From the NCBI GenBank assembly GCA_045646925.1, contig JAZRLQ010000163.1, forward strand, positions 8,872 through 32,871: DNA of 24,000 nucleotides, in the 5' to 3' direction. Positions within the stretch are counted from its first letter, which is position 1, and the number at the start of each line of letters is the position of its first letter. The position numbers were made by a program, and so were the translations under genes. Positions 2 to 17,528 of the stretch are shown in pieces. Under the pieces are notes generated by a model. It was not told the origin of the DNA. It worked only from the letters and a program-made list of their open reading frames with translations, and did not search any database. This stretch comes from Eubacteriales bacterium. Its GTDB lineage: Bacteria > Bacillota > Clostridia > Oscillospirales > CAG-272.

Positions 2-3000
2 CTTATTTTGGCGACAAGAGACGATAAGGGCAAAATTACAAGTGCTACCTTTGTGGACGGTACTCAAGCGACCGTTACCATAGATACTGACGTGGATGAA
101 AACATCACTGTATATACAGTCAGCGACGGTAATGGAAATTCTTGGACGAATTTCTTTGTCCGCGAGGTCTTCTTTACCACGGATGGTACGTCTGAAATCA
201 AGTATACAACGCCTGCGGGCAGCAACGTTTATGCTTGCGAAATGTTGGGCAATAAATATAACGGTCAGCCCCTCTGGAAATATTCAGCGGGAGGTAAGGG
301 TATTTGGCACTACGGTATCCGCGTAAATGAGAACGTGACTGTTGAGAATGGCGTTACCAGTGATTCGAGCTATGTGCTGGAAGACAGCACAGTTGCTTTC
401 TTTGATGGTAACAAGATCTATACTACGGCTGATGGTACGGAAAATGGTGAGATCAAAGAATTTTGGTACAGTTTCTTTGTTACAAAAACCGTGACGACAA
501 AAACCAAAGACAAAGATGGTAAGGTTTCTGAAACGAAAGAATATTCCCATTTCATGTATGATTTTTCGACGGATCCTGTTAACACATGGAATGTAACTCT
601 CTTCGAGCATAAGCCTTTGACTCTGATCGAAGCATACGGCGAAAACCAAAAAACGCATAATTCGGAGCTTCTTTGCGTGCAGTGGCAGATGCCGACCGCG
701 CAGGGCGAGGTTGCTTCCGGTCTTTACTACTTCTATGACGGTGTCTTCACCTTCGGTCTTTCCAGCCCTAATGATACCGTTCGCGATACTTGGAGAAACG
801 ATGCCGCGTCGAAACTCTATCTCGGTCCCGATACTCCTGACGGTTGGACGGTCGACGAAGATCGAGGCGATAGAGCTTTGATTGCATTGCTGAAGCCCAT
901 TACTAACAATAAAGATCTGAATGACGCGATCGTGAGCGGCAAGCAGTTTTATATTTCCGCGCAGCCTGTGGCAGGTGAAGCATATTTCATGTCTTTGAAT
1001 ACTCTCAATGATTCTAAGGATTTTGTTGTTGGCAATGAGAAGTACGAATCTAAAGATACGCCCGGTCAGATCCCGAATACGAAGGTTTCCTTGGAAAATA
1101 ATTTGGCGTCGACTTTGGCACAAAATTATAAGAACGGTCTCTTTACAAAGATTCCGACAGTTCCGATTACGGGTGCCACGCAGGAAGTGAAGATGTCGGT
1201 TAGCTTGACAGATTTGGAGAACCCGGACTTTTGGGGAAACTATACGATTTTGAATATCGGTCGTACTTCGGAATCCTTGACATTAGCAAGTTTGAAACAG
1301 GAGTATAATATCGTTCCGACCAACGTTACTGAAAATGGACAAACGAAGTATTATTACTATCGTAACGATACCGGCGCTTACGTTGGTACAGCAAGCGGAA
1401 CCAATTCCATTGATTCAGATAATGCTGGAAAAATTCCCAATTACGTAGAGTACGACGAGTACATCTATTATACCGTGGATTATGTGATTCCGGATGATGG
1501 TTATACATTTGGTTCGATTTCCGGAACAAGATATGAGGATATAAGGATTTATACCTTCACGTTCTGGTATCAACCTCCTGATAAAGCAGCTCCTGTTCCA
1601 CTTGGTTATACCACTGTGAAGGTTGACGCATATACACAGAATACTGGCCAAAACCCAAGCTATGTAAGTTATATGCCGGATTTTCATTATGGTATGGTAT
1701 ATTTTGGACAAGAAGAACCGAGCAATGATACAAACCAAACGGATCCGAGTTTTTTCTATAGACAAACTAGATTTGACGGAAATAATCATACGCTTCAGGA
1801 GAATGGTGATGGCTTGCTTGCGACCATTACTCCGGTAACACAAACAACTACCGGTTCGGGTTGGAATCCACAAACCACTACCACCTACGCGCCCAATAAC
1901 AATGGCGATTATGTTTTTAATCTTAGCTATCCCGATGAAGGCATTGATGCCACGAACATACCTATGGTCAATATTACAGCCAATCGCTTCCACGGAGATC
2001 GATATGATAAGAATAACAAAACCAGTACCAATGATACAGCAATTGCCGACCAAGCAATTGTGAGTGAAGGCTTTGTTTCCAAGGAAGTGGCGAACACTTG
2101 GGTGGAATATTATTATTATGACGTGACGACCAAAAACTATTATTACTATGATAATGGTTGGAAGAACAATGGCACGGTTGAACCGGAAAGAACCACTGTA
2201 AATGAAAATGGCGAAACGGTAAAGCAGGGGTTGGTGGGTGCCAATGCAGTTCTCATGAACCGTTATCCCGCATACACGTTTGCAAGTAATAATGCGGAAA
2301 GCCCTTCTTATCTTCAGTTTTTACATCAGTTTGCCGATTGGAACTATTGGTTTGGTTATCACGGCGACACTTATTCGCTTTGGGCAGGTACTGAGGCTCA
2401 GTACGAAGAATTGGATTTGAGAAAAGGTAGTACGACGGTTAGTTTTAAGAATACGGGAAATAATTGGAATCCTTATTATACGGACTATAAATTCGAACAG
2501 GTTTTTCAGTGGCTCACGGAGGGTGTTCTTGTCTTTGAGTCCGGTAAGGATTATTGCTATATTCAGTTTACCTATGACAGGCAGAATTTGGACATTTGGT
2601 ACCAAGGTCAAGAGAATGCTTTGGTAAACGGTGGCGACTATTTGGGTAACGGCGGAGAACTTGTTGGATATAGAGAACCCACCAAATCCGATCATAGTTT
2701 GACACAATACGTTGGCTATAATTATAATTCCTCGACCGAAACTTTGGAATATACGCTCAGCGCGACGAAGACGGAGAATACGCGACTTTACGTTTACGTT
2801 ATCGAGGGTATTTTGGATACTACTGCCGGCGTCAATACCTTCATCCCCGAAGATGTTAGAGAAGAAAATAGCAATACACACGCGTTGGACGCAAGTCAAT
2901 ACGTTTTGTGGCCGCAGAAAACCTTGACGCAGACCGGCTATAACACCAACACCGGTTACGATTTTGCAAAAAAGACCGTTTCCGCCTTGACGAGTGTTGA

Positions 3001-4261
3001 CAGTGGCGATGTTCATGCGAGATTGACTTCCTCGGAGGATCCTGTTTACAGTGCGCTTCCTTTGTACGGACCAAATAATACCGGTTTGAACTGGGGTAAT
3101 AGTGAGGGCTATATACTCGGCAGCTCAGGAACATATGGTTTGAATCAAAAATTCCAGATGGCAGACCAGGGCTTCTTTGGTAAACTGCATATTGACGAAA
3201 ACGGCTACGTCAGCTCGGTAACAGGCGGAAAATCCAATATGATGATCGTTCCCGTTGGCTCGAACAATGTGGAATCGCCCATCCCGAAGGGTTGCGTTGC
3301 ATTCAGCGTCAATGCTCAGAGTACGCAGACCATCCGTATCATCGTTTCGGTTCCGACGTCTGAGTATTATCTCCGTGAAAACGAAGCTTTGGATCCCATG
3401 GATCTTTTGAATGACTATTATGTTGGCGTTTGGAAGATCCCGTCGATCACTCCGGGCTCTGAGGTTACGTTTAAAAAATCCGAAGCGATTGAAAAATTCG
3501 AGCTTCCTCGTTCGTATTCGTTCAGCTTTGACGATGATCCTTCCAAGGTCGAGAAAAACGGAGAAAAACATTATATCAACGTTATATACGACGCCGATGG
3601 TGACGGTACATATGACGTTGAGTATGATGAAAATGGTAATATTATAGTTGAGCAATCCCCCGAATATTATCGTACGTATTTGAACGGCGATACCTTCCTC
3701 GTGGCATACGAGTTTACCATTCAAGGTGCTGGAACTGGTGGTACCTATATCATCGGTACTGCTCATGGCGCAGACGGTGTTACGGGCGGAAAGGATATCC
3801 CGATGGAGATCGTTCACTTCTCCGTTTCCGGTACTGCTTCCGCAGGACGTGACGGTGTTCAGGGTAACCAGCTTGGTGCGATCGACTTCGTATACGATAA
3901 TACGCAGGGTGCTATCGTTACCATTGATACCCGTGCGAAGGACGGTCAGACCACTCTGCCCAATGCTGACGGTAACGAGAACTATCAGAATTACTATTCT
4001 TCGCAGACCTTGCTCTATACAGATCTTGAACAGAAGGATTCCCAGACATATCTCAATCTCAACCAAGTTGAACTATATATTCGACGATGGTTGGATTCGA
4101 CGAGAACGGATACTTCTACGACTTATCAATCGAAGATTTCGTATTATATCGGTTCGGATGCTGCTACGAGTCAAGCTGGTCTGATAAAGTTTAAGAAGTA
4201 TTTGGATAACGGTGACGTACACGATCCTCTGACCGCAGAGCCGGGTGTATCGGGCAGTTGA
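2..4261 (+). CDS. Giant secreted/surface protein, 5'-truncated at the window edge (at least 1417 aa); no catalytic domain recognised
   Basis: The ORF is uninterrupted and stays open to the window edge (no stop in codons 2-7). The first residues have no signal peptide, so the true start is probably upstream. T/N/Y/G/D-rich composition is typical of beta-rich extracellular proteins. Aromatic motifs (KYYYYRNDTGAYVGT, VEYYYYD, NYYYYDNGW) loosely resemble cell-wall/glucan-binding repeats. DADGDGTYDVEYDENGN is an acidic Ca-binding-like loop. No LPXTG at the C-terminus. The next gene follows after 45 nt with its own RBS. Confidence 0.75.
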   Translation, partial: LILATRDDKGKITSATFVDGTQATVTIDTDVDENITVYTVSDGNGNSWTNFFVREVFFTTDGTSEIKYTTPAGSNVYACEMLGNKYNGQPLWKYSAGGKGIWHYGIRVNENVTVENGVTSDSSYVLEDSTVAFFDGNKIYTTADGTENGEIKEFWYSFFVTKTVTTKTKDKDGKVSETKEYSHFMYDFSTDPVNTWNVTLFEHKPLTLIEAYGENQKTHNSELLCVQWQMPTAQGEVASGLYYFYDGVFTFGLSSPNDTVRDTWRNDAASKLYLGPDTPDGWTVDEDRGDRALIALLKPITNNKDLNDAIVSGKQFYISAQPVAGEAYFMSLNTLNDSKDFVVGNEKYESKDTPGQIPNTKVSLENNLASTLAQNYKNGLFTKIPTVPITGATQEVKMSVSLTDLENPDFWGNYTILNIGRTSESLTLASLKQEYNIVPTNVTENGQTKYYYYRNDTGAYVGTASGTNSIDSDNAGKIPNYVEYDEYIYYTVDYVIPDDGYTFGSISGTRYEDIRIYTFTFWYQPPDKAAPVPLGYTTVKVDAYTQNTGQNPSYVSYMPDFHYGMVYFGQEEPSNDTNQTDPSFFYRQTRFDGNNHTLQENGDGLLATITPVTQTTTGSGWNPQTTTTYAPNNNGDYVFNLSYPDEGIDATNIPMVNITANRFHGDRYDKNNKTSTNDTAIADQAIVSEGFVSKEVANTWVEYYYYDVTTKNYYYYDNGWKNNGTVEPERTTVNENGETVKQGLVGANAVLMNRYPAYTFASNNAESPSYLQFLHQFADWNYWFGYHGDTYSLWAGTEAQYEELDLRKGSTTVSFKNTGNNWNPYYTDYKFEQVFQWLTEGVLVFESGKDYCYIQFTYDRQNLDIWYQGQENALVNGGDYLGNGGELVGYREPTKSDHSLTQYVGYNYNSSTETLEYTLSATKTENTRLYVYVIEGILDTTAGVNTFIPEDVREENSNTHALDASQYVLWPQKTLTQTGYNTNTGYDFAKKTVSALTSVDSGDVHARLTSSEDPVYSALPLYGPNNTGLNWGNSEGYILGSSGTYGLNQKFQMADQGFFGKLHIDENGYVSSVTGGKSNMMIVPVGSNNVESPIPKGCVAFSVNAQSTQTIRIIVSVPTSEYYLRENEALDPMDLLNDYYVGVWKIPSITPGSEVTFKKSEAIEKFELPRSYSFSFDDDPSKVEKNGEKHYINVIYDADGDGTYDVEYDENGNIIVEQSPEYYRTYLNGDTFLVAYEFTIQGAGTGGTYIIGTAHGADGVTGGKDIPMEIVHFSVSGTASAGRDGVQGNQLGAIDFVYDNTQGAIVTIDTRAKDGQTTLPNADGNENYQNYYSSQTLLYTDLEQKDSQTYLNLNQVELYIRRWLDSTRTDTSTTYQSKISYYIGSDAATSQAGLIKFKKYLDNGDVHDPLTAEPGVSGS

Positions 4262-4306: not shown

Positions 4307-5068
4307 ATGAAAAATAAGCTGACCAAAAGCAATTTAATAATAGCGCAAAGAGGCGTATCTCTCGTAGTCGTCTTCGCTACGCTTTTGACCGCGTTCGTCG
4401 CGATCGCTCCGTGGACGTACGGCTGGTTCGCCAAAAACAACAAGGTCACCGCAAGCGGTATGCATACGCAGGCGTACTATTCGAGATTTGACGTGACTTA
4501 CGCCGTCAAACAAGATGGTGAATATAAACCTGCCGAACCGAACGCTTTGTTCAATACGATCATTGCTCCCGGTTACTCGGCAGAAATTCAGATCACCATC
4601 ACGAATAAGTCGAGCAACAAGTATGCGGTCAACCTCACGGGCTTCGGTCTGGAAGCACCGACTGCTGATCAGGAGATTGCCAAAGTCGACTCTGCCGGAA
4701 AGATTCGCTATCTCAGCACCGAGCTTACTACAGAACTTCTTGGTGTGACGGTGGCATATCCGAGCACAAATACGAATACGCCTCCGGCTTATAGCGTAAC
4801 AATGCAGTCCGTTCCTGTACAACTTCGCGAAGGTACTTCCACAGAGCCGGGCGCAGCGGGACGCATTGACTATGTTCGGTATGTGAAGGATGTTGAAACT
4901 ACTCCGATTTCTGTTCCCGTTGGTGGTAGCGTGACCTTTACGATCCGCGTGACTTTCAAAAATACCGACTACGACCAGAATATCTATAAGGATTTTGCCG
5001 GCACGGGCGGTAAATGCGAAAGAAAGTTCTTCTTCACCTTTGAAGATGATATGAGTACATCTAATTAA
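4307..5068 (+). CDS. TasA/camelysin-like secreted protein with a SipW-type signal peptide (candidate matrix-fibre subunit)
   Basis: RBS AAAGGAGA lies 5 nt before the ATG. The N-terminus has a basic stretch and a hydrophobic core, then APWTYGWFAKNNKVTASGM. This resembles the T-x-A-x-F-x-D...N-x-F-x-x-G region of B. subtilis TasA and B. cereus CalY signal peptides as I recall them. LFNTIIAPGYSAEIQITITNKSS resembles the PGD...v.N.G strand of that family. Two SipW-type peptidase genes lie downstream. Confidence 0.6.
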   Translation: MKNKLTKSNLIIAQRGVSLVVVFATLLTAFVAIAPWTYGWFAKNNKVTASGMHTQAYYSRFDVTYAVKQDGEYKPAEPNALFNTIIAPGYSAEIQITITNKSSNKYAVNLTGFGLEAPTADQEIAKVDSAGKIRYLSTELTTELLGVTVAYPSTNTNTPPAYSVTMQSVPVQLREGTSTEPGAAGRIDYVRYVKDVETTPISVPVGGSVTFTIRVTFKNTDYDQNIYKDFAGTGGKCERKFFFTFEDDMSTSN

Positions 5069-5115: not shown

Positions 5116-5144
5116 TTGACTGGATATTGTATCTATGTTATAAT
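5116..5144 (+). promoter_or_regulatory. Sigma-A type promoter with extended -10
   Basis: TTGACT (5116-5121), exactly 17 nt spacer, TATAAT (5139-5144), preceded by TG at 5136-5137 (TGtTATAAT). It sits in the 314-nt gap between the tasA-like and sipW genes. The predicted TSS near 5151 leaves a leader of about 230 nt. Confidence 0.6.
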
Positions 5145-5170
5145 ATCGTTGTATTGTTTGTAATTTTATA

Positions 5171-5240
5171 TTCAGCAAAATAGTCGCAAGGCTATGACGC
5201 AAAGCTATAGGGACTTTGATCAAGTTAGCCAGTTGCAAGT
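5171..5240 (+). promoter_or_regulatory. Candidate c-di-GMP-I (GEMM-I) riboswitch aptamer
   Basis: GCAAAA (5175-5180) is followed by hairpin TAGTC-GCAA-GGCTA (5181-5194, GNRA loop) and then GACGCAAAGC (5196-5205). The second helix is GCTA(5204-5207)/TAGC(5226-5229) plus ACTT(5213-5216)/AAGT(5222-5225). The 3' strand is TAGCCAGTTGC (5226-5236). From memory, V. cholerae Vc2 reads GGCAAA-CCAUUC-GAAA-GAGUGG-GACGCAAAGCC...UAGCGGGGUUACC. Not verified with a covariance model. Confidence 0.6.
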
Positions 5241-5270
5241 TTTTTACCTTCGCACTGGCTGATTTTGTTG
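5227..5270 (+). terminator. Intrinsic terminator-like hairpin forming the riboswitch expression platform
   Basis: AGCCAGT (5227-5233) pairs with ACTGGCT (5254-5260). The stem is extended by GCAAG (5235-5239) pairing with CTT-c-GC (5248-5253). GATTTTGTTGTG follows. The 5' arm reuses the 3' strand of the proposed aptamer, so the two folds are mutually exclusive. Confidence 0.55.
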
Positions 5271-5382
5271 TGAAATCGGTTAGTGTGAATAACGCGAAGC
5301 AATCCCGAGCGTCAAACAAAACAATAATTCAATTTATTACTGAAAACGAAAGGCATTGTTTCGTGGAAGAGAGGTTTTATTT

Positions 5383-6096
5383 ATGGAAAAAGTAAAAAAA
5401 ATAGGGGGAATTGTCGGTAATACGATTATTTGGCTTTTTGTTGCCTTTTCCCTTGCAATCACCATTATGGTGTTTTCCGCTCAGCAGAGCTCGGACGGCA
5501 TTCCCGCCCTGTTCGGCAAGAGTATGCTCACCATCCAGACACCCTCGATGAAAGAGACTTACGACGTTGGCGACATGGTCTTCATGACGAAGCTCACCGA
5601 CGAAGACAAATATGAGCTGAAGGTGGGCGATATCATTACGTATCACGCGCCCATCGATATTGACCAGGACGGTCTGACGGGGGATATCAATACGCACCGT
5701 ATTTACTCCATCGATTCTGCGACGGGTCTCATTGTGACGAAGGGTGATGGCAATCTGATCCCCGATAATTACACGATCCACCGCAATGACGTTATCGGTA
5801 TTTGCACCGAGAACGGCAAACTTGACGGTGTTGGCAGCGTGGTTGAATTTCTCCGCTCCCGTATCGGATTTTTCGTTTGCATTGTATTGCCCTTGATTCT
5901 TTTCTTTGTTTTTGAACTCTATAACTTTATTACGATCCTTGCTTCCGAAAGAGCGAAGAAGGCTCCCATCGCAAAGGAGACCGAAGAAGAGATCAAACGC
6001 CGCGCGATCGAAGAATATATCAAGAGCCAGCAGGCTGCACAGGAAGCGGCTGCAGAAAAAGAAACTCCCGCCGATGAGAATTCTGCGGAGAAATAA
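5383..6096 (+). CDS. sipW: Signal peptidase I, SipW/archaeal-ER type (S26B), paralogue 1
   Basis: ATG at 5383 follows GGAAGAGAGG; the track's TTG at 5356 has no RBS. N-terminal TM helix, then QTPSMKET (catalytic Ser), INTHRIYS (His), TKGDGNLIPD, a C-terminal TM helix and an acidic/K-rich tail. The layout matches B. subtilis SipW (SGSMEP...THRIV...KGDNN) as I recall it. Confidence 0.85.
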   Translation: MEKVKKIGGIVGNTIIWLFVAFSLAITIMVFSAQQSSDGIPALFGKSMLTIQTPSMKETYDVGDMVFMTKLTDEDKYELKVGDIITYHAPIDIDQDGLTGDINTHRIYSIDSATGLIVTKGDGNLIPDNYTIHRNDVIGICTENGKLDGVGSVVEFLRSRIGFFVCIVLPLILFFVFELYNFITILASERAKKAPIAKETEEEIKRRAIEEYIKSQQAAQEAAAEKETPADENSAEK

Positions 6097-6127
6097 ACTA
6101 ATTTTTAGAAAGGACCGGTGATACGGA

Positions 6128-7687
6128 ATGGAAGGCTTTTTTGATTGGTTTTTTGCATTCTTGACAACAATGATCGACGGAATTTGGATGATTTTCTCCG
6201 GTATTTTCCGTGGCATCTTCCAGATTTTCAACGTCGTCAACTATTTCGAACTGTTTAAGAGTTATAAGGGCGGTTTTACCGCGATCGACTGGATCCTTGC
6301 AGTCATCAGCTTGTTTATGGTGCTTGCGATCCTTGGTATTCTTGTTTATCTCGCGGTTATCGGTATCAGAAAGTATATCAGATTCCGCAAATCCGCAGTT
6401 AACAACGAGGACCTTCTCGAAGAGCTTGCAACGCTCCACAGAGACGTTCTCAAGCTCACAAAAGAAAGAGAGAAGCTTCTTGCGCTCAAGATCGGTCAGA
6501 CCGATATTTCCATTAGCGACCTCAACGCTATTCTCTCTGATGGCGGTGACGAAGATGGTTATTCTGAAACCGACGACGGACGCGCAGATCTCGATGGAAG
6601 TGAGAATTTGCCTCGTTTCTTTAAACTCGATGCAATCGACCAGAAATATCTCAACTATGAAGCTCCCGAATACAGAACGGACTTCACACTGTATGACCTC
6701 TGCCGCGATTTCAGAAACTTCTGCTGCTCTCGCATGGGTCTTTACTATGAAGAAAAGGTCACCAGACTTATTTTCGCAGGTCTCGCTTCCACGAAGCTCA
6801 TTCTTTTGCAGGGTATTTCCGGTACCGGTAAAACATCTCTGCCTTACGCAATGGGTAAGTTCTTCCAGAAGGACGCGACCATCGTTTCCGTTCAGCCTTC
6901 CTGGCGTGACCGTACCGAGCTTTTCGGTTACTTCAACGAATTCTCGAAGCGCTTCAACGAAACCGACCTTCTCCGCCGCGTTTACGACGCTTCCTACAAC
7001 GATGATATCAACGTTATCATCCTCGACGAAATGAATATCGCCCGCGTCGAATACTATTTCGCGGAAATGCTTTCCATCATGGAAATGCCCGACCCCAGAG
7101 AATGGAAGATCGAACTCGTTCCTTCCTCCTGGGATAATGACCCCCAGAACCTCAAAGACGGTAAGCTTCTCATTCCTCAGAATACTTGGTACATCGGTAC
7201 GGCGAACAACGACGACTCGACCTTCTCGATCTCCGATAAGGTTTACGACCGTGCGCTTACCATCAATATCGATAATAAGGGTATGCCTTTCGAAGCTCCC
7301 GATACACCTCCGTCTCTCATCAGCTATTCCTCCGTCAACGCTCTCTACCAGAAGGCGATCGAGGATTATCCCGTTGACGAGCGTTACCTCCAGATGATCG
7401 AGGCGCTCGACACCTACGTTATCAAGAAATTCAGAGTTGCATTCGGTAACCGTATTATCAAGCAGCTTAAGATCTTCGTGCCCGTTTACGTTGCCTGCGG
7501 CGGTACTGCCGTTGAAGGTATCGACCATATCCTCGCTACCAAGGTCTTCAGAAAGTTTGAAATGCTCAACCTCTCTCTCATCAGAGACGAGATCAAGGGT
7601 CTTATCAACTATCTCAACACCATGTTCGGTAAGGATGCAATGAAGGAATGTATCGAATTCCTTGAAAGATTGCAGCGCACGTATTAA
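6128..7687 (+). CDS. Membrane-anchored McrB-like AAA+ GTPase (2 predicted TM helices, coiled coil, AAA_5/McrB-type core)
   Basis: Walker A is GISGTGKTS. VQPSWRDRTELFGYFN resembles McrB vqFH.sysYEDFi.Gy. Walker B and following residues VIILDEMNIARVEYYFAEMLSIME resemble McrB LDEINRA....FGEl..llE. YIGTANNDDST resembles the McrB iGTMNTADRS (NxxD) signature. The N-terminus has two hydrophobic helices (FFAFLTTMIDGIWMIFSGIF and WILAVISLFMVLAILGILVYLAVIGI), then a heptad-like EDLLEELATLHRDVLKLTKEREKLLALK. Confidence 0.8.
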   Translation: MEGFFDWFFAFLTTMIDGIWMIFSGIFRGIFQIFNVVNYFELFKSYKGGFTAIDWILAVISLFMVLAILGILVYLAVIGIRKYIRFRKSAVNNEDLLEELATLHRDVLKLTKEREKLLALKIGQTDISISDLNAILSDGGDEDGYSETDDGRADLDGSENLPRFFKLDAIDQKYLNYEAPEYRTDFTLYDLCRDFRNFCCSRMGLYYEEKVTRLIFAGLASTKLILLQGISGTGKTSLPYAMGKFFQKDATIVSVQPSWRDRTELFGYFNEFSKRFNETDLLRRVYDASYNDDINVIILDEMNIARVEYYFAEMLSIMEMPDPREWKIELVPSSWDNDPQNLKDGKLLIPQNTWYIGTANNDDSTFSISDKVYDRALTINIDNKGMPFEAPDTPPSLISYSSVNALYQKAIEDYPVDERYLQMIEALDTYVIKKFRVAFGNRIIKQLKIFVPVYVACGGTAVEGIDHILATKVFRKFEMLNLSLIRDEIKGLINYLNTMFGKDAMKECIEFLERLQRTY

Positions 7688-7730
7688 TTTTTAAATTCTA
7701 AAGAAAAAAGTCGCAAGGGAGGACCTTTCT

Positions 7731-9539
7731 TTGAATAACAATTACGAAAATTTCAGAGCCAAAGTGTTCTCCGCAATGAGAGGACTGGCAAATGATTGCC
7801 CGGAGTTTTCCGATGCGGAAATGCTGGTTGCGTCTTCTGAAGTCGATGCAACTTTAAAAAGAAGCACCGTACACAAAAATATTGATACCGAATGGGTCAG
7901 CAGAATCGAAGAAACGATCCCGTATCTCGATCTGATTGTTCGTAACCCCACGATCATGATCGAGGACATCGAAGAGATTCTTCCCGTCGAGCTTTCCCGC
8001 AGCGTTACGGAAAAGACTGTCAAGCATTTGGCTCAACATACCAATATGATCCTTACCATCACGGAGAAGGACGAGGTTATTCCTCAGAAGCTGCTCAACG
8101 TATATCATGAAGAGACGCTTCTTACATATGAAAACAAGTTCATCAATACGCTCCTCGCGCGCCTCACGGCGTTCGTTGATAAGCGTTATAAGCTGCTGCG
8201 CGGCGGACACGGAACTGAAAGAAATTATCAGTTCCGTTACTCCACGGAGTTCGATCACTTCGCTGACGAATATTCCGGGCGCAACACGGCGCAGATCAAG
8301 CTTTCCATCGACCTGACCTCCCCCGTGACAGAGGGACTCACCGAAGCGGAGCTTGAAGCAAACGAGAGATATATTTCGACGATGGAGCGCATTGAAAAGA
8401 TCAGTAATACGCTCACTTCCTATATGTCTTCTCCTTACATCAAGGCGCTGGGCAGAAACTATATCCGCCCGCCCGTGATCAGAACCAACGCGATTCTCAA
8501 GAATAAGAACATGAAGGTGTGTCTGAATCTTTGGGAATACATTGAGGGCTTTGACAAAGCCGGATATTCTTTCATCAACGACGAATATACGGAAATGCCC
8601 TCCGACAACTACATCTCCGATTTCTACTCCACCGTGGCTCTCCAGTACACCGATTTCTATAACGGCGTTGCGGAAAACGCGGAGGCAAACAGAATGCTCG
8701 CGAAGCGCCACATTTCCAATGTGGAACCCGATTTCTCTGCGGATTTCGACGTAGAGGAAATCAACGATTACGAGGTCTTCGACTCGGAATACAAGAAGAT
8801 GGTTCCGGTTTCCCGTTTGGCAAATGATGGTTCTCAACTTTCTGAGGACGAGTGCCGTGTAGGTGTTGCTGTTCTTGTTGCTTTAAAGGCTGATGAAATT
8901 CTTTTTGCGCCTATTCTTGCACAAGAAGCTGAAGAAAGAAGAATCGCAAGAGAAAAACGACTCGCTGAAGAAGAAGCAAAGAGACGTGCCGAAGAAGAAG
9001 CAAGAAGACGCGCCGAGGAAGAAGCAATTCGTCTTGCGGAAGAAGAAGCGAGACGTGCTGAAGAAGAACGACTCAGAAAGATTGCCGAGGAAGAAGCGAG
9101 AAGACGCGCCGAGGAAGAAGCAAGAATTCGCGCTGAAGAAGAAGCAAGAAGACTTGCAATTGAAAGAGAAGAGGAAGCAAGAAGACTTGCTGCCGAAAAA
9201 GAAGAAGCGAGACGTCTTGCGGAAGAAGCTGAAAAATATGGCTTTATCTTCCCTGATTCCAAGGATACATATAATGGAAAATCTATCGTTCTTCCGTATA
9301 CGAGAGAGCAGTATCTTGCTTTCCCGAGAAAGAAGAAAAAGAGCGTCCTCATGGATGTTAAGAAAATCAATTCTTATCATGAAAATTTGGAAGCGCTTGA
9401 ACTCCTTAAATCCAAAAATACTAATAATCCCAATGTGAAAGAACGTATCAGACTTCTTGAAAATCAGTTGAATGAAGAGTACAAGACTCTTCCGAAGGGT
9501 CAGCTTTGGGATTCTTGTATCCGTAAAGTGAAAAAATGA
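7731..9539 (+). CDS. Soluble 602-aa partner of the McrB-like ATPase (McrC position); N-terminal globular region, ~105-aa E/R/A helix, small basic C-terminal domain
   Basis: TTG start lies 8 nt after GGGAGG (7717-7722). No TM helix or signal peptide. TYENKFINTLLARL and NMKVCLNLWEYIEGF loosely recall the ENR...LFE.FV helical motifs of McrC-family proteins (from memory, unverified). I cannot find a convincing PD-(D/E)xK core. Residues ~398-502 are EEEARRRA-type repeats. The stop overlaps the next gene's start (ATGA at 9536-9539). Confidence 0.7.
   Translation: MNNNYENFRAKVFSAMRGLANDCPEFSDAEMLVASSEVDATLKRSTVHKNIDTEWVSRIEETIPYLDLIVRNPTIMIEDIEEILPVELSRSVTEKTVKHLAQHTNMILTITEKDEVIPQKLLNVYHEETLLTYENKFINTLLARLTAFVDKRYKLLRGGHGTERNYQFRYSTEFDHFADEYSGRNTAQIKLSIDLTSPVTEGLTEAELEANERYISTMERIEKISNTLTSYMSSPYIKALGRNYIRPPVIRTNAILKNKNMKVCLNLWEYIEGFDKAGYSFINDEYTEMPSDNYISDFYSTVALQYTDFYNGVAENAEANRMLAKRHISNVEPDFSADFDVEEINDYEVFDSEYKKMVPVSRLANDGSQLSEDECRVGVAVLVALKADEILFAPILAQEAEERRIAREKRLAEEEAKRRAEEEARRRAEEEAIRLAEEEARRAEEERLRKIAEEEARRRAEEEARIRAEEEARRLAIEREEEARRLAAEKEEARRLAEEAEKYGFIFPDSKDTYNGKSIVLPYTREQYLAFPRKKKKSVLMDVKKINSYHENLEALELLKSKNTNNPNVKERIRLLENQLNEEYKTLPKGQLWDSCIRKVKK
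8922..9236 (+). repeat. In-frame imperfect tandem repeat (about 24-nt / 8-aa period) encoding an E/R/A-rich helix
   Basis: The translation is QEAEERRIAREKRLAEEEAKRRAEEEARRRAEEEAIRLAEEEARRAEEERLRKIAEEEARRRAEEEARIRAEEEARRLAIEREEEARRLAAEKEEARRLAEEAEK. The 40-mers at 8988-9027 and 9084-9123 differ at 2 of 40 positions by my alignment, with an offset of 96 nt (4 x 24). Confidence 0.85.
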
Positions 9540-10126
9540 TTCAATTAAAAAAAATATCGGGTGTTCTCAAAATTGCGGCGACAATTTTTTGGTGGATCGC
9601 TACGGTTGCCATTGTCGTTTTGATCTGTATAATCATGGGTGCGAAGATAAAAGGTAAGGTTCCTTATCTCTTCGGTTACTCTGTGATGAATATTATCAGC
9701 GGCAGCATGGAGGATAGAATTCCTGCGGGAACCTATATTCTGATCAAAAAAACCGACGCGGCCGATATACAAAAGGGTGATATTATCTGTTTTTATTCAG
9801 ATGACCCTCGTATCCAAGGATATCCGAATACACATACTGTGATTGAAGATCCGATTCACGGTGAGAACGGAATCGAATTCATCACAAAGGGCGATGCGAA
9901 CCTCGTAAAAGATGATTATACCGCCAAGGGTGATAAATTGATAGGGAAATATGTGAAAAACCTCGACGGTTTGACGCGCTTTTCCCAATCACTCCAAGGT
10001 AACGCCATATTCTTCTGTTATATGATTTTAATGGGAATGTGTGTGATTTTTATGGTGGTTCCTGTATTCATAAAGGTTTTATCAAAAGATTCGGACGATG
10101 AAAATGCAAAGGATCAGCAGACTTGA
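9536..10126 (+). CDS. sipW: Signal peptidase I, SipW/archaeal-ER type (S26B), paralogue 2
   Basis: The ATG overlaps the upstream stop (ATGA). N-terminal TM helix, SGSMEDRIP (catalytic Ser), PNTHTVIE (His), TKGDANLVKDD, and a C-terminal TM helix (IFFCYMILMGMCVIFMVVPVFI). Confidence 0.85.
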   Translation: MIQLKKISGVLKIAATIFWWIATVAIVVLICIIMGAKIKGKVPYLFGYSVMNIISGSMEDRIPAGTYILIKKTDAADIQKGDIICFYSDDPRIQGYPNTHTVIEDPIHGENGIEFITKGDANLVKDDYTAKGDKLIGKYVKNLDGLTRFSQSLQGNAIFFCYMILMGMCVIFMVVPVFIKVLSKDSDDENAKDQQT

Positions 10127-10167: not shown

Positions 10168-12444
10168 ATGGCCGATAAAACCAAAATAAAAAAACTGATG
10201 AAACATGCTGGAAAGATTTCCATCATTATAGCAGTGCTTTTTCTTACCTTTTATTTGATTACGATTATTACGAAATCGTCGGAATTTTATGCTGAATCCA
10301 CTGTGAAGAATGCTAAAATTTCTTTTGATAAGGATATGAACAATGTTTCCGCGTTGGTAGAGGAGCATTATGAAAATCTCTATGAGGTTGTCGATCATGT
10401 GAGTTATGCGAAAACAACGGAAGAAGTTATTGCAATCATGACTTCGTACATTGGCAGTGAACAGTTTGGTGATCTTCGTTATTATTCAAAAGGCGTGGCT
10501 TATGCTGCTACCGGTGCAATCATAGGCGATGATGTGAGCGGTCATGAGATGATCAAAGAACTTGCTCAAGGCAATAAGGCTGGTTGTACAGACGTATATC
10601 GAGATGGAAACGTGAAAATGGATTGCATTGCGTTCTTTATTCCCGTTCGCGGTTCTGAAGTTATCGATGGAATTGTCTCCGTTGTGCCGGCACGTAATAT
10701 TATTCAAGTTAGCGATATTATGCAGGATGAAACCTCTATGGTTGCTATTGTAGGGGCAAAGGGAAATATCTATGCGCGTAAGTTCGCAGAGAATTTTACG
10801 ACTGACGTAGGTGAAAACGTATATGATTTCCTTGAAGATTTTACCGCTAGTAAGACGATGGCGGATAATGTCAGAGGCGTGCTTAACGCCAAAGAGCTTT
10901 CTACGACAGAGATTCAGTCTGCGGGTGTTGATTATACAATTGTTGCGGAGCCGATCGAATCTTTTGACGGTTATCTGCATTTGATTACTATTAGCAAAAG
11001 CAATGATTTGATTATGACGGAGATTAGCTATATCCGTCACATAGTCAGTATTTTGTTGCTTGCGATCATCGGCTTCATTGTCGGTCTCGTGTTCGTATTC
11101 CTTTTCCAGAAAAAAGCAAAGGATGCGGTGATGACCGCAAACCTCAAGGATGCAGAGCTTGAATGTGCCAATATTGAGGGCTTCAGAAGAGCAGCTCTCA
11201 ATCTTTCTCACGGAAGCGATAAGCGTTACGCAGTCTGCGTATCCTCCATCCGCCAGTTCCATTTTGTCAAGGATAAATTCGGCGCGGATGCTTCCGATAA
11301 GCTTTTGAAATTTATTGCTCAGGTCTACAAGACCTTCTGTAACAAAAATGAAACCTTCGGTTATGCAGGTGACGGCAAGTTCCTGCTCTTTGCGGAATAC
11401 GCTTCCGAATCTGCATTCCGTGATAAACTGATGGTTCTTGAAAATATCGTTAATCAGCACGAGCTTCTCATGCAAAATCGCGTGAAGATCCGCTTCGCAA
11501 CGGGTATTTGTCTCGGCTTCGGACAGAAGAAACGTACGATCTCCGAAATGATCGACTGCGCTACCATCGTGTGCGAGGACGCGAAGAACGACGTTGCAAC
11601 GCCTTACGTGATCTACGTTGAAAACGTACGCGAAAAGATCAACCGCAGCGAACAGATCGAAGCGCAGATGGAGCACGCGTTGGATAACAACGAATTCAGA
11701 CTTTTCCTCCAGCCGAAATATAACGTTGCAACCGACTCGATTGACAGCGCGGAAGCGCTCGTCCGTTGGTTCGATCACCGCAAGGGCGATTATATTTACC
11801 CCGTAGAATTTATCGGTCTCTTTGAGACGAACGGCTTTATCGTGAAGATGGACCATTTCATCTATCTCGAGGTATTGAAATACATCAGCGAAGCGAGAGA
11901 GAAAAACGAGAAGATCGTTCCGATCTCCGTCAACGTTTCCCGCGTTACTGCAAGTAAAGACGATTTCGTTAACTTCTACGTAGGCAACAAGAGAAAGTAT
12001 ATGATCGACGACGATCTGATCAAGCTTGAATTTACCGAGACCTTCGCGGTTGAGGACTACACGAAGCTCGCAGAGATCGTAAAACAGCTTCAAGAGGGCG
12101 GTATCCGTTGCTCTATCGACGACTTCGGTGTCGGCTATTCTTCCTTCCGCGTTCTGAAGGAGCTTACGATGGACGAATTGAAGCTTGACCGCGTATTCCT
12201 TTCTAAAGGCGTCGACGTTCAGCGTGACGAAAAGATCATTTCCACCATCGTTTCCTTGGCGAATGAAATGGGAATGACCGTCGTTCAGGAGGGTGTCGAA
12301 ACCAAGGAAATGTTTGACCGCGTTTCCCGTTTGGGTATCAACGTCATTCAGGGTTATTACTACGCGAAGGCGATTCCTCTGGAAGAGTTCAAGATCTTCA
12401 TCAAGAGTAATACGTCCATCCGTTATAAATCCATCGTTAAATAA
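10168..12444 (+). CDS. Membrane sensor protein: extracytoplasmic Cache-like domain between two TM helices, degenerate GGDEF, intact EAL (predicted c-di-GMP phosphodiesterase)
   Basis: TM1 is ISIIIAVLFLTFYLITIIT. An extracytoplasmic region of about 270 aa precedes TM2 (VSILLLAIIGFIVGLVFVFLF). The GGDEF position reads YAGDGKF, so the motif is degenerate. EAL hallmarks are all present: EFRLFLQPKY, AEALVRW, FETNG, SVNVS, LEFTET, IDDFGVGYSS, KLDRVF, VQEGVET, IQGYYYAKA. Confidence 0.9.
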   Translation: MADKTKIKKLMKHAGKISIIIAVLFLTFYLITIITKSSEFYAESTVKNAKISFDKDMNNVSALVEEHYENLYEVVDHVSYAKTTEEVIAIMTSYIGSEQFGDLRYYSKGVAYAATGAIIGDDVSGHEMIKELAQGNKAGCTDVYRDGNVKMDCIAFFIPVRGSEVIDGIVSVVPARNIIQVSDIMQDETSMVAIVGAKGNIYARKFAENFTTDVGENVYDFLEDFTASKTMADNVRGVLNAKELSTTEIQSAGVDYTIVAEPIESFDGYLHLITISKSNDLIMTEISYIRHIVSILLLAIIGFIVGLVFVFLFQKKAKDAVMTANLKDAELECANIEGFRRAALNLSHGSDKRYAVCVSSIRQFHFVKDKFGADASDKLLKFIAQVYKTFCNKNETFGYAGDGKFLLFAEYASESAFRDKLMVLENIVNQHELLMQNRVKIRFATGICLGFGQKKRTISEMIDCATIVCEDAKNDVATPYVIYVENVREKINRSEQIEAQMEHALDNNEFRLFLQPKYNVATDSIDSAEALVRWFDHRKGDYIYPVEFIGLFETNGFIVKMDHFIYLEVLKYISEAREKNEKIVPISVNVSRVTASKDDFVNFYVGNKRKYMIDDDLIKLEFTETFAVEDYTKLAEIVKQLQEGGIRCSIDDFGVGYSSFRVLKELTMDELKLDRVFLSKGVDVQRDEKIISTIVSLANEMGMTVVQEGVETKEMFDRVSRLGINVIQGYYYAKAIPLEEFKIFIKSNTSIRYKSIVK

Positions 12445-13816: not shown

Positions 13817-14455
13817 ATGGAACGTTTAGCGAAAAAAATCGCAAAATCCGTTGGCGAATCGCTTGGAAAAACAGAGGAGGAGGTCGCCGTCATCGCGTAC
13901 GGTTTGATCGGTATCCTTCAATTTTCCGCGATATTTCTCGTCGCGTCAGTAATCGGAATTATTTTCGGTTTCTGGCTTGAGGTGTTGACGGTATTCTTAT
14001 CCGTCGGCTTCCTGCGCCGCTTCACCGGAGGCGCGCATTCTTCGGGTTTGTACAGTTGTCTTTTTTACAGTGTTATTTTCGTTTGTGGGATCTCCTCGCT
14101 TGCGCATTACGTCTTGTCTGCGTTGCCGTTTGCAGCGAATTGCATTTTGTGCGGACTGATCTTCTCGTTCGGCTATCTGATGGTTGCGCTCAAAGCGCCG
14201 GTCGCTCCGCCCAACAAGCCCTGCCGCTCCGAAGCAAAACGCAAAAGACTGCGCAAGGGCGCGTTCATAGCGCTTTCGGCTTTTTTGATCTTCGTCGCGT
14301 TGACCGTCATTTTCAAGGATTCGGCGCCGAGACTTTATACGATCGGTTTGGCTCTTTCATTGTCAACGCTTTGGCAAATTGCCATGATGACGAAGGTCGG
14401 ACATATATTCATTACCTTTATTGACGGTATATTTATGAAAAAAGAAAGTCAGTAA
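13817..14455 (+). CDS. agrB: AgrB-family membrane cysteine endopeptidase (autoinducing-peptide maturation)
   Basis: LRRFTGGAHSSGLYSC carries the G-G-x-H motif with a Cys exactly 7 residues after the His. This is the same spacing as catalytic H77/C84 of S. aureus AgrB. The protein is polytopic with a basic loop (KPCRSEAKRKRLRKG) and is followed by an AgrD-like ORF. Confidence 0.85.
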   Translation: MERLAKKIAKSVGESLGKTEEEVAVIAYGLIGILQFSAIFLVASVIGIIFGFWLEVLTVFLSVGFLRRFTGGAHSSGLYSCLFYSVIFVCGISSLAHYVLSALPFAANCILCGLIFSFGYLMVALKAPVAPPNKPCRSEAKRKRLRKGAFIALSAFLIFVALTVIFKDSAPRLYTIGLALSLSTLWQIAMMTKVGHIFITFIDGIFMKKESQ

Positions 14456-14532: not shown

Positions 14533-14658
14533 ATGAAAGCCAAAATTCTGATGTCGATTTCTGTAATCGCTACCATGTTTGCAGCATTTGCGGCTTCTTC
14601 GGCCTGCTTCTGGTGGATCTATCAGCCCGAAGAACCCGCATCCTTGCAGGACAAGTAA
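14533..14658 (+). CDS. agrD: AgrD-like autoinducing peptide precursor (41 aa; predicted thiolactone ring CFWWI)
   Basis: Not in the ORF track. RBS GGAGAAAGGAGG ends 8 nt before the ATG. My translation is MKAKILMSISVIATMFAAFAASSACFWWIYQPEEPASLQDK. It has an amphipathic N-terminal helix, a Cys plus 4 residues, then an acidic YQPEEP..L tail. C. perfringens AgrD, as I recall it, ends ...TSACLWFTHQPEEPKSLRDE with ring CLWFT. Confidence 0.85.
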   Translation: MKAKILMSISVIATMFAAFAASSACFWWIYQPEEPASLQDK

Positions 14659-14741: not shown

Positions 14742-16400
14742 ATGATACAATCTACAAAGGAATTAACTCAAGAAATAAAGAATATATTCGTTACGCTGAA
14801 GCTGCTCGTCCTTTTTCTTTGCGTAATTCCGGTTATCCAAAAGATATTTTCAACGACTTCAACGGATGAGACATTGTTCTTGAGCTTTTCGAAAATGCTT
14901 CTTTTCGTCGGCGTTATTTTGATCGTCGTTGTCTTCTGGGCGGTTACGAATTACGCGTTCAAAAATCAACGCGTCCGTTCGATCGTCGAGGTCGTGACGA
15001 TGTACTTCTTCTGCTTTCTGTGCTACAGAAGCACGGGAACGCATTTGAGTAGCTATAAGTTCATTTTCGCGCTGATCATTTTGCTCTATACCATGGAATT
15101 GGGACTTCGTTTCGGTATGATCTTTTCCATTGCGGCAGGTACGATCATTATCGTTTGCGATTATCTGAGCTGCGCGGAAGCGCTGAGATCGCAGTATTTC
15201 CAAGCGGATATTATGCTTTTGGGAACGTTTGCCCTGCTTGCTTATATCGTCGGCTTCTACGTGGAAAAGGACCGCGCGGTGATCGCTTCACTAAAGGAAT
15301 CGGTCAACAAGGACGCTTTGACGAAGCTATACAATCACCGTTATTTCCACGAATATATGCACGAGATCATCAACCGTCCTCACACGGAAGGCGGACGTGA
15401 GTATCTTTTCATTATGGACATTGACTTTTTCAAGGTCTATAACGATACCCACGGTCATCTGAAGGGGGACGTCGTTCTCGCGAAGATCGCCGAAATATCC
15501 AAAAAGACGATCACCACCGGCTTCGTATTCCGATACGGCGGTGAAGAATTCGCCGTGCATTTGTTTGCGCGTGACCCAAATCACGCCTTCGATATTGCAA
15601 ATAAGCTCAGAACCGCGATCGCGGATTACGTTTTCGAGGGTGAAGAGCTCATGCCCGGACACAACGTCACCGTTTCCATCGGCGTGTCCGAAAAGAGAGA
15701 AGAGGACGATACCGTTGCCGACTGGATCGAGCGCGCGGACAATGCGCTCTACAGAGCGAAGGCTTTCCGCAAAAACTGCGTTCAGTTCTATTCCTCCGTG
15801 TTCGACAGATTCGATCATCTCGACCAGATCAACGACGACGAACGTATCATCTCCATCAAGACCTTGCTTTCGGTCATTAACTCCAGAGACCGCTATACTT
15901 ATAACCACACGGACCGAGTCGTTCACTATTGCGAGATATTTTCCAAATACGCGAAGCTTTCCGAGGAGGAATCCCGTAAGCTTCTGTACAGCGCGTATCT
16001 GCACGACATCGGAAAGATCAATATTCCGCAGGAGATTCTGATCAGTGAAAAACGCCTCACCGACGAGGAATGGGCGCTGATGAAAAAGCACCCGTGGGAC
16101 GGCGCGGACATTGTTCGCAAAATCGAAAATTTCGAAACGATTGCGGATATCGTTCAGCAGCACCATGAAAAATATAACGGCGGCGGATATCCTCAGGGTA
16201 TCAAGGGCGAAGAGATCCATTATCTTGCCCGTGTTCTGACGCTTGCGGACAGCTTTGACGCGATGACGTCAAAACGTCCGTACCAGAAGGTCAAGACCTT
16301 CGAGGAGGCGTTCGCGGAGATCCGTAATTGCAAGGGAACGCATTTCGATCCCGAGCTTGCCGAAATTTTCGTGCAGGCGATCGGAGAGACCTACTGCTGA
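14742..16400 (+). CDS. 6-TM membrane sensor fused to an intact GGDEF (diguanylate cyclase) and an intact HD-GYP (c-di-GMP phosphodiesterase)
   Basis: RBS GAGGTG. About six hydrophobic helices occupy residues 1-190. GGDEF hallmarks: DALTKLYNHRYF, DIDFFKVYNDTHGHLKGD, RYGGEEF, SIGVS, ADNALYRAKAFRKN. There is no RxxD I-site five residues upstream of GGEEF (ITTG instead). HD-GYP hallmarks: HTDRV, LHDIGKINIP, KKHP, HHEKYNGGGYPQG, LADSFDAMTSKRPY. Confidence 0.9.
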   Translation: MIQSTKELTQEIKNIFVTLKLLVLFLCVIPVIQKIFSTTSTDETLFLSFSKMLLFVGVILIVVVFWAVTNYAFKNQRVRSIVEVVTMYFFCFLCYRSTGTHLSSYKFIFALIILLYTMELGLRFGMIFSIAAGTIIIVCDYLSCAEALRSQYFQADIMLLGTFALLAYIVGFYVEKDRAVIASLKESVNKDALTKLYNHRYFHEYMHEIINRPHTEGGREYLFIMDIDFFKVYNDTHGHLKGDVVLAKIAEISKKTITTGFVFRYGGEEFAVHLFARDPNHAFDIANKLRTAIADYVFEGEELMPGHNVTVSIGVSEKREEDDTVADWIERADNALYRAKAFRKNCVQFYSSVFDRFDHLDQINDDERIISIKTLLSVINSRDRYTYNHTDRVVHYCEIFSKYAKLSEEESRKLLYSAYLHDIGKINIPQEILISEKRLTDEEWALMKKHPWDGADIVRKIENFETIADIVQQHHEKYNGGGYPQGIKGEEIHYLARVLTLADSFDAMTSKRPYQKVKTFEEAFAEIRNCKGTHFDPELAEIFVQAIGETYC

Positions 16401-16464: not shown

Positions 16465-16497
16465 GTTTACGCGGCAATTCGTCATTGGATTTTATTC

Positions 16498-16526
16498 TTG
16501 ACAAATACTGCGGAAAATTTTATAAT
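16498..16526 (+). promoter_or_regulatory. Consensus sigma-A promoter
   Basis: TTGACA (16498-16503), 17-nt spacer, TATAAT (16521-16526). It lies inside the 5' end of the track ORF 16485-17519, which argues for a later start codon. Confidence 0.7.
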
Positions 16527-16562
16527 AAAAATATAATGATGAAATTGGAAAGGATCGTAACG

Positions 16563-17519: not shown

Positions 17520-17528
17520 GGGTGCGCC

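Follow-up and report, generated by a model that had tools for sequence, protein, structure and literature searches.

What is a GTPase pair descended from a restriction enzyme doing between two secretory signal peptidases? This question is raised by a row of genes at positions 5383–10126 of the window, which is the whole 24,000-nucleotide (nt) stretch of contig JAZRLQ010000163.1 from an Eubacteriales bacterium analysed in this study. In the original prediction, the row was taken for an undescribed module of a membrane-anchored McrB-like GTPase and its partner, bracketed by two SipW-type peptidases, and was assigned either to envelope assembly or to defence. Our results favour the first of these hypotheses. 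We consider it fairly probable that the locus is a cyclic di-GMP (c-di-GMP)-induced operon for a TasA-like fibre or "pilus", in which a McrBC-derived, membrane-tethered GTPase module is coupled to SipW-type peptidases and controls or powers processing or assembly. The envelope-assembly reading is preferred because SipW is present in all of the 82 related loci analysed, because the McrC homologue is fused to a SipW-type peptidase in several species and because the operon stands in a context of c-di-GMP riboswitches and EAL-domain genes. The features on which the argument depends are listed below.

8–4261, plus strand: candidate giant secreted protein, more than 1417 amino acids (aa), its 5' end beyond the window edge
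4307–5068, plus strand: candidate TasA-like fibre subunit of 253 aa (p253), bearing a signal anchor at its N-terminus and a GWFAKNNKVTASGM motif
5116–5144, plus strand: sigma-70-like promoter, TTGACT-17-TATAAT with an upstream TG, 11 of 12 consensus positions, a consensus match only
5164–5240, plus strand: c-di-GMP-I riboswitch aptamer (Rfam RF01051)
5222–5277, plus strand: terminator-like hairpin with a U-rich tail, a putative expression platform whose 5' arm is the 3' arm of the aptamer
5383–6096, plus strand: sipW1, SipW-type (S26B, archaeal/endoplasmic reticulum (ER)-type) signal peptidase (TIGR02228)
6128–7687, plus strand: membrane-anchored McrB-type NTPase of the NxD subclass, the CoCoPALM McrB homologue, 519 aa (PDB, HHalign, AAA_5)
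7731–9539, plus strand: partner with the McrC N-domain (DUF2357) and without a nuclease, 602 aa (Pfam DUF2357)
9536–10126, plus strand: sipW2, SipW-type signal peptidase (TIGR02228 and Pfam Peptidase_S26)
10168–12444, plus strand: membrane protein with a degenerate GGDEF domain and an EAL domain, final gene of the unit (Pfam EAL, GGDEF)

From sipW1 onward the genes are packed on one strand exactly as had been described, with gaps of 31, 43 and -4 nt and then 41 nt up to the GGDEF-EAL gene. The overlap of the partner with the second S26B peptidase reads ATGA at 9536–9539, and 314 nt separate the p253 gene from sipW1. A scan of one genome per species revealed at least 579 species with a relative, and the loci of the best 80 of these species, together with two metagenome loci, were analysed (82 loci, 49–75% identity). 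They belong to Clostridia, Ruminococcus, Lachnospiraceae, Christensenellales and metagenome-assembled genomes of Bacilli, Erysipelotrichaceae and "Tenericutes", and the cultured carriers among them are Eubacterium ruminantium FB3002, Ruminococcus sp. FC2018 and R. flavefaciens MC2020. The co-occurrence with sipW, which the original prediction had proposed to survey in other genomes, proved to be conserved: a SipW homologue lies no more than 10 kb away in 82 of 82 loci, and the DUF2357 partner is present in 81. sipW stands directly upstream of the McrB homologue in 50 of the 72 informative loci and directly downstream of the partner in 49 of 70, often with a gap of -4 to +12 nt. Several of the downstream peptidases that appear to be missing are in fact fused to the partner. 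Five Ruminococcus-group species encode such DUF2357-coiled coil-transmembrane (TM)-S26 proteins of 984–998 aa (L022, 9828–12824; L028, 7353–10307; L033, 11787–14765; L036, 11709–14681; L041, 11595–14564; numbers with the prefix L denote related loci). The C-terminal part of these fusions runs from a TM segment through the S26 domain (TGSMEP...THR...GDAN) and a second TM segment into a charged tail. That such fusions exist in five species argues strongly that McrC homologue and peptidase function as a single physical unit, and the fusion fixes the topology, with DUF2357 and the coiled coil inside and the peptidase outside.

Both peptidases of the window pass the TIGR02228 model of archaeal/ER-type signal peptidase I (SipW1 64.4 bits, SipW2 74 bits, cutoff 51.85), and SipW2 also exceeds the gathering score of Pfam Peptidase_S26. 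They score 63.6 and 68 bits against the Bacillus SipW equivalog NF046067, below its cutoff of 190, so that they are SipW-type peptidases and not SipW orthologues. SipW1 contains TM segments at 15–33 and 161–179, the motifs SM..., THR and GDGN, and a charged C-terminal tail of about 50 aa (residues ~185–237); the tail of SipW2 is short. A similar (I/L)(K/R)R(E/R)AIE motif is seen in the SipW1 tail and in the tails of the five fused McrC-SipW proteins. The census also shows a larger variant of the locus, of Bacilli/Erysipelotrichaceae type (L046, L050, L053, L054, L056, L064, L066, L072, L074, L080 and others), with a minimal partner of 360–397 aa that lacks the coiled coil, as many as four copies of sipW and the extra cargo families c5, c6 and c7. 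In this variant a cytoplasmic protein of about 330 aa (families c9/c22) is encoded directly upstream of the McrB homologue; its C-terminal half resembles by eye a degenerate EAL domain, and Pfam gives no match to it.

Judged from its sequence, the 519-aa protein is a McrB-family AAA+ NTPase of the NxD subclass with both Walker A and Walker B intact. All of the McrB hallmarks quoted earlier are found in it (GISGTGKTS, DEMNIAR..FAEM..IME and TANNDDS), and the assignment is backed by a PDB sequence search, in which E. coli McrB chains are the closest solved structures (E=2.7e-4), and by alignment of the family profile with E. coli McrB over 241 columns (HHalign probability 96.9%, E=1.6e-10). The protein alone matches Pfam AAA_5 weakly (E=0.0098), and 24 of 30 diverse family members match this model. 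Among 30 representatives aligned for conservation (29–62% identity), the Walker A residues G229, G232, G234 and K235, the Walker B residue D300, and N360, D362 and R442 are invariant, while position 363 is D, E or, in one case, Q, so that the signature is the NxD(D/E) variant (N360-x-D362) of the McrB motif. The family is large: a word-index search gives at least 8000 homologues, and an exhaustive search gives 8268 cluster representatives at E<=0.001 and 751 (50% identity clusters) at E<=1e-30; the top 120 homologues listed share 72–100% identity.

The two TM helices and the coiled coil that had been proposed ahead of the ATPase core were recovered in part. Kyte-Doolittle hydropathy shows a strong segment at 55–73 (2.94), followed by RKYIRFRK, and the best heptad-like stretch falls at 85–119, but the segment at 8–26 is only marginal (1.64). 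Because this positive patch follows the 55–73 anchor, the positive-inside rule places the NTPase domain in the cytoplasm. Residues 1–200 are made up of hydrophobic, coiled-coil or acidic linker sequence and Pfam finds no DNA-binding family in them, in agreement with the proposal that a membrane anchor takes the place of the DNA-reading domain. The anchor and the heptad-like stretch fit the TM/coiled-coil architecture of an FtsB-like segment, as an architectural match only; Pfam detects no FtsB/DivIC sequence similarity in the window NTPase, and DivIC is weakly matched by one of the 30 family members (E=0.012).

The partner was originally described as carrying no recognised McrC signature, which turns out to be incorrect. 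Pfam places DUF2357, the McrC N-terminal domain, on residues 66–159 (E=2.9e-5), all 28 partner relatives match it (best E=5.3e-18), and most database homologues of the partner bear a precomputed PF09823 label. In canonical McrBC, the DUF2357 domain plugs into the McrB ring and stimulates it. Other features described for this protein in the McrC position hold. It appears from family searches to be without a nuclease in every variant examined: no Pfam nuclease family is found in the window protein or in nine long relatives (821–1320 aa), the last invariant residue of the family alignment is W268, so that no conserved catalytic residues lie beyond it, and the shortest relatives have only 360–397 aa. 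The long E/R/A helix and the small basic C-terminal domain are likewise evident, with 38 E, 26 R and 25 A in a stretch of 109 residues, which AlphaFold2 (AF2) models as helices 372–446 and 455–503, and with 21 K/R against 12 D/E in the 99-residue tail. This basic domain (504–602) is confidently folded in the AF2 model and has no structural match, while a putative hairpin at 106–121 is of low confidence in the monomer model. A search of PDB sequences with the profile of the N-terminal core of the partner family found nothing. Foldseek gives no PDB match for the partner fold at E<=0.001, and its top hits, TolC-like helical bundles, are driven by the long helices and were rejected. In homologues P0385, P0331 and P0304, the basic PYTRxQYLALPRKKKK C-terminal domain is exchanged for a …VKGKxLYLYLALDPxEF… domain (alignment columns ~500–794), suggesting that the C-terminal module is swappable.

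What might such a unit process? The protein encoded by the gene preceding the riboswitch, p253, is likely TasA-like, as judged from its predicted structure. It has a hydrophobic segment at 16–34 by hydropathy, and shares a (S/T)(F/Y)AW(F/L)-type motif (...TYGWFAKNNKVTASGM) with the c3 family found beside homologous loci; its N-terminal motif presumably resembles those of TasA and CalY. The AF2 model is a beta-sandwich (pLDDT, the predicted local distance difference test score, 80.6; pTM, the predicted template modelling score, 0.73), for which Foldseek returns a single PDB match at E<=0.001, the TasA fibre 8aur (E=5.2e-4, prob 0.99). The claimed wiring of the locus to SipW-type peptidases and a likely TasA-like protein is supported. 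The archaeal fibre protein CanA is also among the fold matches, and Peptidase_M73/camelysin is weakly matched by four of 43 relatives of p253 (best E=8.4e-4). Searching PDB sequences with the p253 family profile returned only HSP90, which was rejected as spurious; since there is no true sequence match, the similarity to TasA is visible at the fold level only.

The giant protein (8–4261) has no Pfam or NCBIfam match. No in-frame stop precedes its open reading frame, so that the gene continues past the window edge, and its C-terminal ~480 aa share 32% identity (E=4e-49) with the 1413-aa protein at the same position of L085, which starts with a signal anchor and then VYAYF. Recurrent neighbours in related loci are a small EAL protein, the c2 and c3 families (~240–330 aa), the paralogues c5, c6 and c7, and the giant families c10, c13, c18 and c25 (1100–2600 aa). 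Most of them begin, as the L085 protein does, with a signal anchor followed by (S/T)(F/Y)AW(F/L), as seen in c2, c3, c5, c18 and c25. Pfam and NCBIfam give no match to c2, c3, c5, c6, c7, c9 or c22.

The control of the operon is indicated by the aptamer ahead of sipW1, a feature that the original prediction does not mention. It covers all positions of its Rfam model (1–87 of 87) with 52.9 bits against a gathering score of 35 (E=6.2e-8). The hairpin at 5222–5265 (-18.5 kcal/mol, z=-2.7) is followed by a U-rich tract, GAUUUUGUUGUG. Because the 3' arm of the aptamer is also the 5' arm of this hairpin, an aptamer stabilised by its ligand should prevent the terminator, from which we infer an ON switch. 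This aptamer is also carried by 12 related loci (L001, L002, L004, L005, L008, L011, L012, L014, L017, L019, L035 and L083), at the head of the operon or directly before sipW and sometimes twice per locus. A minus-strand pattern match in L007 was rejected after alignment showed that it arose by chance. Clades without the aptamer keep EAL-domain genes. In the window, the GGDEF-EAL protein (EAL E=1.7e-50, GGDEF E=1.3e-8 by Pfam) retains the EAL motifs AEAL, DDFGVGYSS and EGVE, whereas its GGDEF site is degenerate (YAGDGKF), and two TM segments flank an extracytoplasmic region of about 250 aa. It is probably a sensor c-di-GMP phosphodiesterase, and the combination of an intact EAL with a degenerate GGDEF suggests that it acts in feedback. 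L001, L002, L004, L005, L007, L009 and others also have an EAL gene at this position; direct phmmer detects EAL genes in 18 of 44 full-length loci, and the small EAL cluster c4 and the window EAL gene together span 51 loci.

Is this module new? Bell et al. (eLife 2024, PMC11090510) name a class called CoCoPALM in section 7 of their main text, in one paragraph without experiments and with the analysis deferred; their supplementary text gives no CoCoPALM details. The class is defined there by a McrB GTPase with the NxD motif fused to an FtsB-like TM/coiled-coil segment, together with a McrC homologue that has a coiled coil and with associated signal peptidases, which Bell et al. term likely pilus assembly factors; coiled coils are usually present on both homologues. 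The NxD motif, usually with D or E next to it, marks an unusual branch of McrBC in the same text. Like this class, the window has an NxD McrB GTPase with an N-terminal TM segment and coiled coil, an adjacent coiled-coil DUF2357 McrC homologue and adjoining signal-peptidase genes, and it has no nuclease. Most of the class features are thus present and nothing contradicts membership, and we assign the locus to CoCoPALM on this basis. The claims that the module was undescribed and that no McrBC-type pair was wired to secretory peptidases are both superseded by this paragraph of Bell et al.; "uncharacterised" is the right word. What this study adds to their main text is the riboswitch/EAL link, the TasA-like cargo, the McrC-SipW fusions and the set of SipW-type cargo. 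Our literature searches on SipW with McrB, McrB with TasA, PDC-M26, and SipW with c-di-GMP and riboswitches yielded nothing on the system beyond Bell et al.

Canonical McrBC (E. coli; PDB 6hz4, 6ut6, 7vsr) shares with the window the McrB-family AAA+ core, the DUF2357 family of the partner and the B-then-C gene order with a small gap. In contrast to canonical McrB, however, the window homologue carries a membrane anchor in place of the N-terminal DNA-binding domain and the NxD(D/E) signature instead of NxxD, its partner has neither the PD-(D/E)xK nuclease nor detectable similarity to E. coli McrC, and the genes are embedded in a secretion/fibre operon. The CoCoNuTs (CnuB/CnuC) belong to the same NxD GTPase clade, have coiled-coil fusions and often have McrC homologues without an active nuclease, but as described in the main text of Bell et al. 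they always come with nucleases, HEPN or others, and with RNA-binding domains, and they are not membrane-anchored; the window pair has no such nuclease or RNA-binding domain and does carry a membrane anchor. The known SipW-fibre operons, tapA-sipW-tasA of B. subtilis and sipW-bsaA of Clostridium perfringens (PMC7395162), also place a dedicated SipW-type peptidase beside TasA-like substrates and serve the biofilm matrix, a role that in the window is suggested by the genes. Neither of these operons contains an NTPase, whereas the window has two peptidases, several cargo paralogues and a giant protein, the McrBC-derived pair and c-di-GMP control.

Taking these observations together, we propose the following mechanism for the envelope-assembly reading. 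The McrB homologue would assemble into a hexamer tethered to the membrane, with the DUF2357 partner setting off its GTPase cycle. This cycle may be coupled across the membrane through the long coiled coils together with the SipW proteins' cytoplasmic tails or TM segments, and a charged tail of the SipW1 type could be the docking site for the GTPase pair. Such coupling would affect the cleavage or release of the membrane-anchored TasA-like subunits and the giant protein, and once cleaved, the subunits may polymerise extracellularly through donor-strand exchange in the manner of TasA. At high levels, c-di-GMP would stabilise the aptamer, prevent the terminator hairpin and turn the unit on, with the co-transcribed EAL phosphodiesterase providing negative feedback.

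Several points weigh against this reading. Fibres of B. subtilis TasA need only SipW and TapA and no NTPase. The ATPase core matches a defence-candidate model of PADLOC, PDC-M26A (E=7.7e-35). The DUF2357 score of the window partner is barely over its gathering threshold (23.9 against 23.3 bits), and the N-terminal core profile of the partner family shows no similarity to E. coli McrC (HHalign probability 0.07%), so that its relationship to McrC is drawn through Pfam DUF2357 alone. The AF2 model of the partner is moderate (pLDDT 71, pTM 0.40), with low confidence in the putative ring-inserting region 75–128, and the TM helices of the locus were scored by hydropathy only. The TasA-like call comes from one Foldseek match with a TM-score of about 0.33 and a few weak Pfam matches, and only the clade nearest the window has the riboswitch, a clade-specific model finding none in the other loci. 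Literature searches also yielded no follow-up or experimental work on any CoCoPALM member.

Could the GTPase pair be a true motor of fibre assembly? In this stronger form, a hexamer with a DUF2357 plug, coupled through coiled coils to the S26B peptidases, would use GTP hydrolysis to drive or time subunit release, polymerisation and the anchoring of a giant adhesin, with c-di-GMP as the on-switch. We regard this as possible but rather doubtful. TasA fibres of B. subtilis form without an NTPase, so that a motor is not obviously required. If true, it would amount to an analogue of the type IV pilus ATPase and peptidase made of restriction-enzyme parts. The analogy with the type IV pilus core (PilB, platform protein, PilD) is purely functional. 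In both, an NTPase that is hexameric, or in the window predicted to be so, would work on the cytoplasmic side of the membrane next to a signal peptidase of its own and membrane-anchored precursors. The proteins come from unrelated families, AAA+ McrB differing from PilB and S26B from the aspartyl prepilin peptidase, and the subunits are beta-sandwich TasA-like proteins in the window but alpha-helical pilins in the type IV pilus. Control by a c-di-GMP riboswitch is a further parallel, as seen for pilA1 in Clostridioides difficile.

An alternative that we think unlikely, though it fares best among the rivals, is that the pair does no mechanical work and is a regulatory checkpoint, a switch responsive to c-di-GMP or cargo that licenses or inhibits SipW or signals to matrix-gene expression. 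The C-terminal tail of B. subtilis SipW has a reported non-catalytic signalling role, which offers an analogy for the latter option, and SipW1 and the fused McrC-SipW proteins do have long charged cytoplasmic tails that resemble each other. Small EAL-domain proteins conserved at the head of related operons point in the same direction, as do the EAL-like c9/c22 proteins directly upstream of the McrB homologue in loci of the Bacilli/Erysipelotrichaceae type, and TasA assembly elsewhere needs no NTPase. However, a full hexameric-type AAA+ protein with invariant catalytic motifs and more than 8000 homologues is more than a simple switch needs, an objection qualified by the ability of McrB-type GTPases to act as timers, and no c-di-GMP-binding motif was identified in the GTPase pair.

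The second of the original hypotheses, a membrane-tethered and nuclease-less McrBC derivative in anti-phage defence or abortive infection, we judge improbable. The pair would sense an infection cue at the envelope, and the peptidases or secreted proteins would be the effectors, for example by surface remodelling or receptor blocking. Its appeal lies in descent from type IV restriction McrBC, in the PDC-M26A candidate match and in the sister CoCoNuTs, which are predicted defence systems in the main text of Bell et al. (PMC11090510). The PADLOC match, however, covers the AAA+ core only (profile positions 312–433 of 724), PDC-M26 needs both components, and the partner and both peptidases have no PADLOC match. 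There is no nuclease, HEPN domain, methyltransferase or other effector in or beside the pair, whereas CoCoNuTs without the McrC nuclease always have another nuclease nearby according to the same text. Gene order and flanks are kept across 80 species with the same signalling genes downstream, unlike variable defence islands, and control by a c-di-GMP riboswitch points to lifestyle regulation. Finally, a role in cell division or envelope remodelling, in which the FtsB/DivIC-like TM segment and coiled coil target the GTPase to the divisome and the SipW linkage is secondary, is very improbable, since the FtsB-like label of Bell et al. (PMC11090510) and the single weak DivIC match face a window protein without significant DivIC similarity, no division genes nearby, and SipW peptidases and SipW-type cargo as the invariant partners.

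If the envelope-assembly reading is true, a restriction-enzyme engine has been repurposed to build cell-surface fibres in a family that is very abundant in gut and rumen Firmicutes. An NTP-dependent route would then be added to TasA-type fibre biogenesis, for which a signal peptidase and an accessory protein are at present believed to suffice. The riboswitch, the EAL genes, the McrC-SipW fusions, the SipW-type cargo and the TasA-like fold make the class directly testable, and cultured hosts exist. For annotation, the locus is a warning that a McrB/DUF2357 pair is not always a defence system.

The rest of the window encodes DUF5317, agrB/agrD, GGDEF-HD-GYP and MoxR genes, and those signalling genes downstream of the fibre operon are syntenic in relatives; the neighbourhood is a signalling context and not a defence island. 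A MoxR-type AAA_3 ATPase followed by a 372-aa protein without a Pfam match (16485–18647) forms a further AAA+ pair, unrelated to the first. The gene of a second enzyme of c-di-GMP turnover, a membrane GGDEF and HD-GYP (HD_5) protein, follows the GGDEF-EAL gene at a distance of 2.3 kb (14742–16400), with synteny kept in L083–L086. Between them, agrB (13817–14455) is followed by a 41-aa AgrD-like peptide open reading frame at 14533–14658 (MKAKILMSISVIATMFAAFAASSACFWWIYQPEEPASLQDK), which is kept in L083 and suggests a quorum-sensing peptide system beside the fibre operon.

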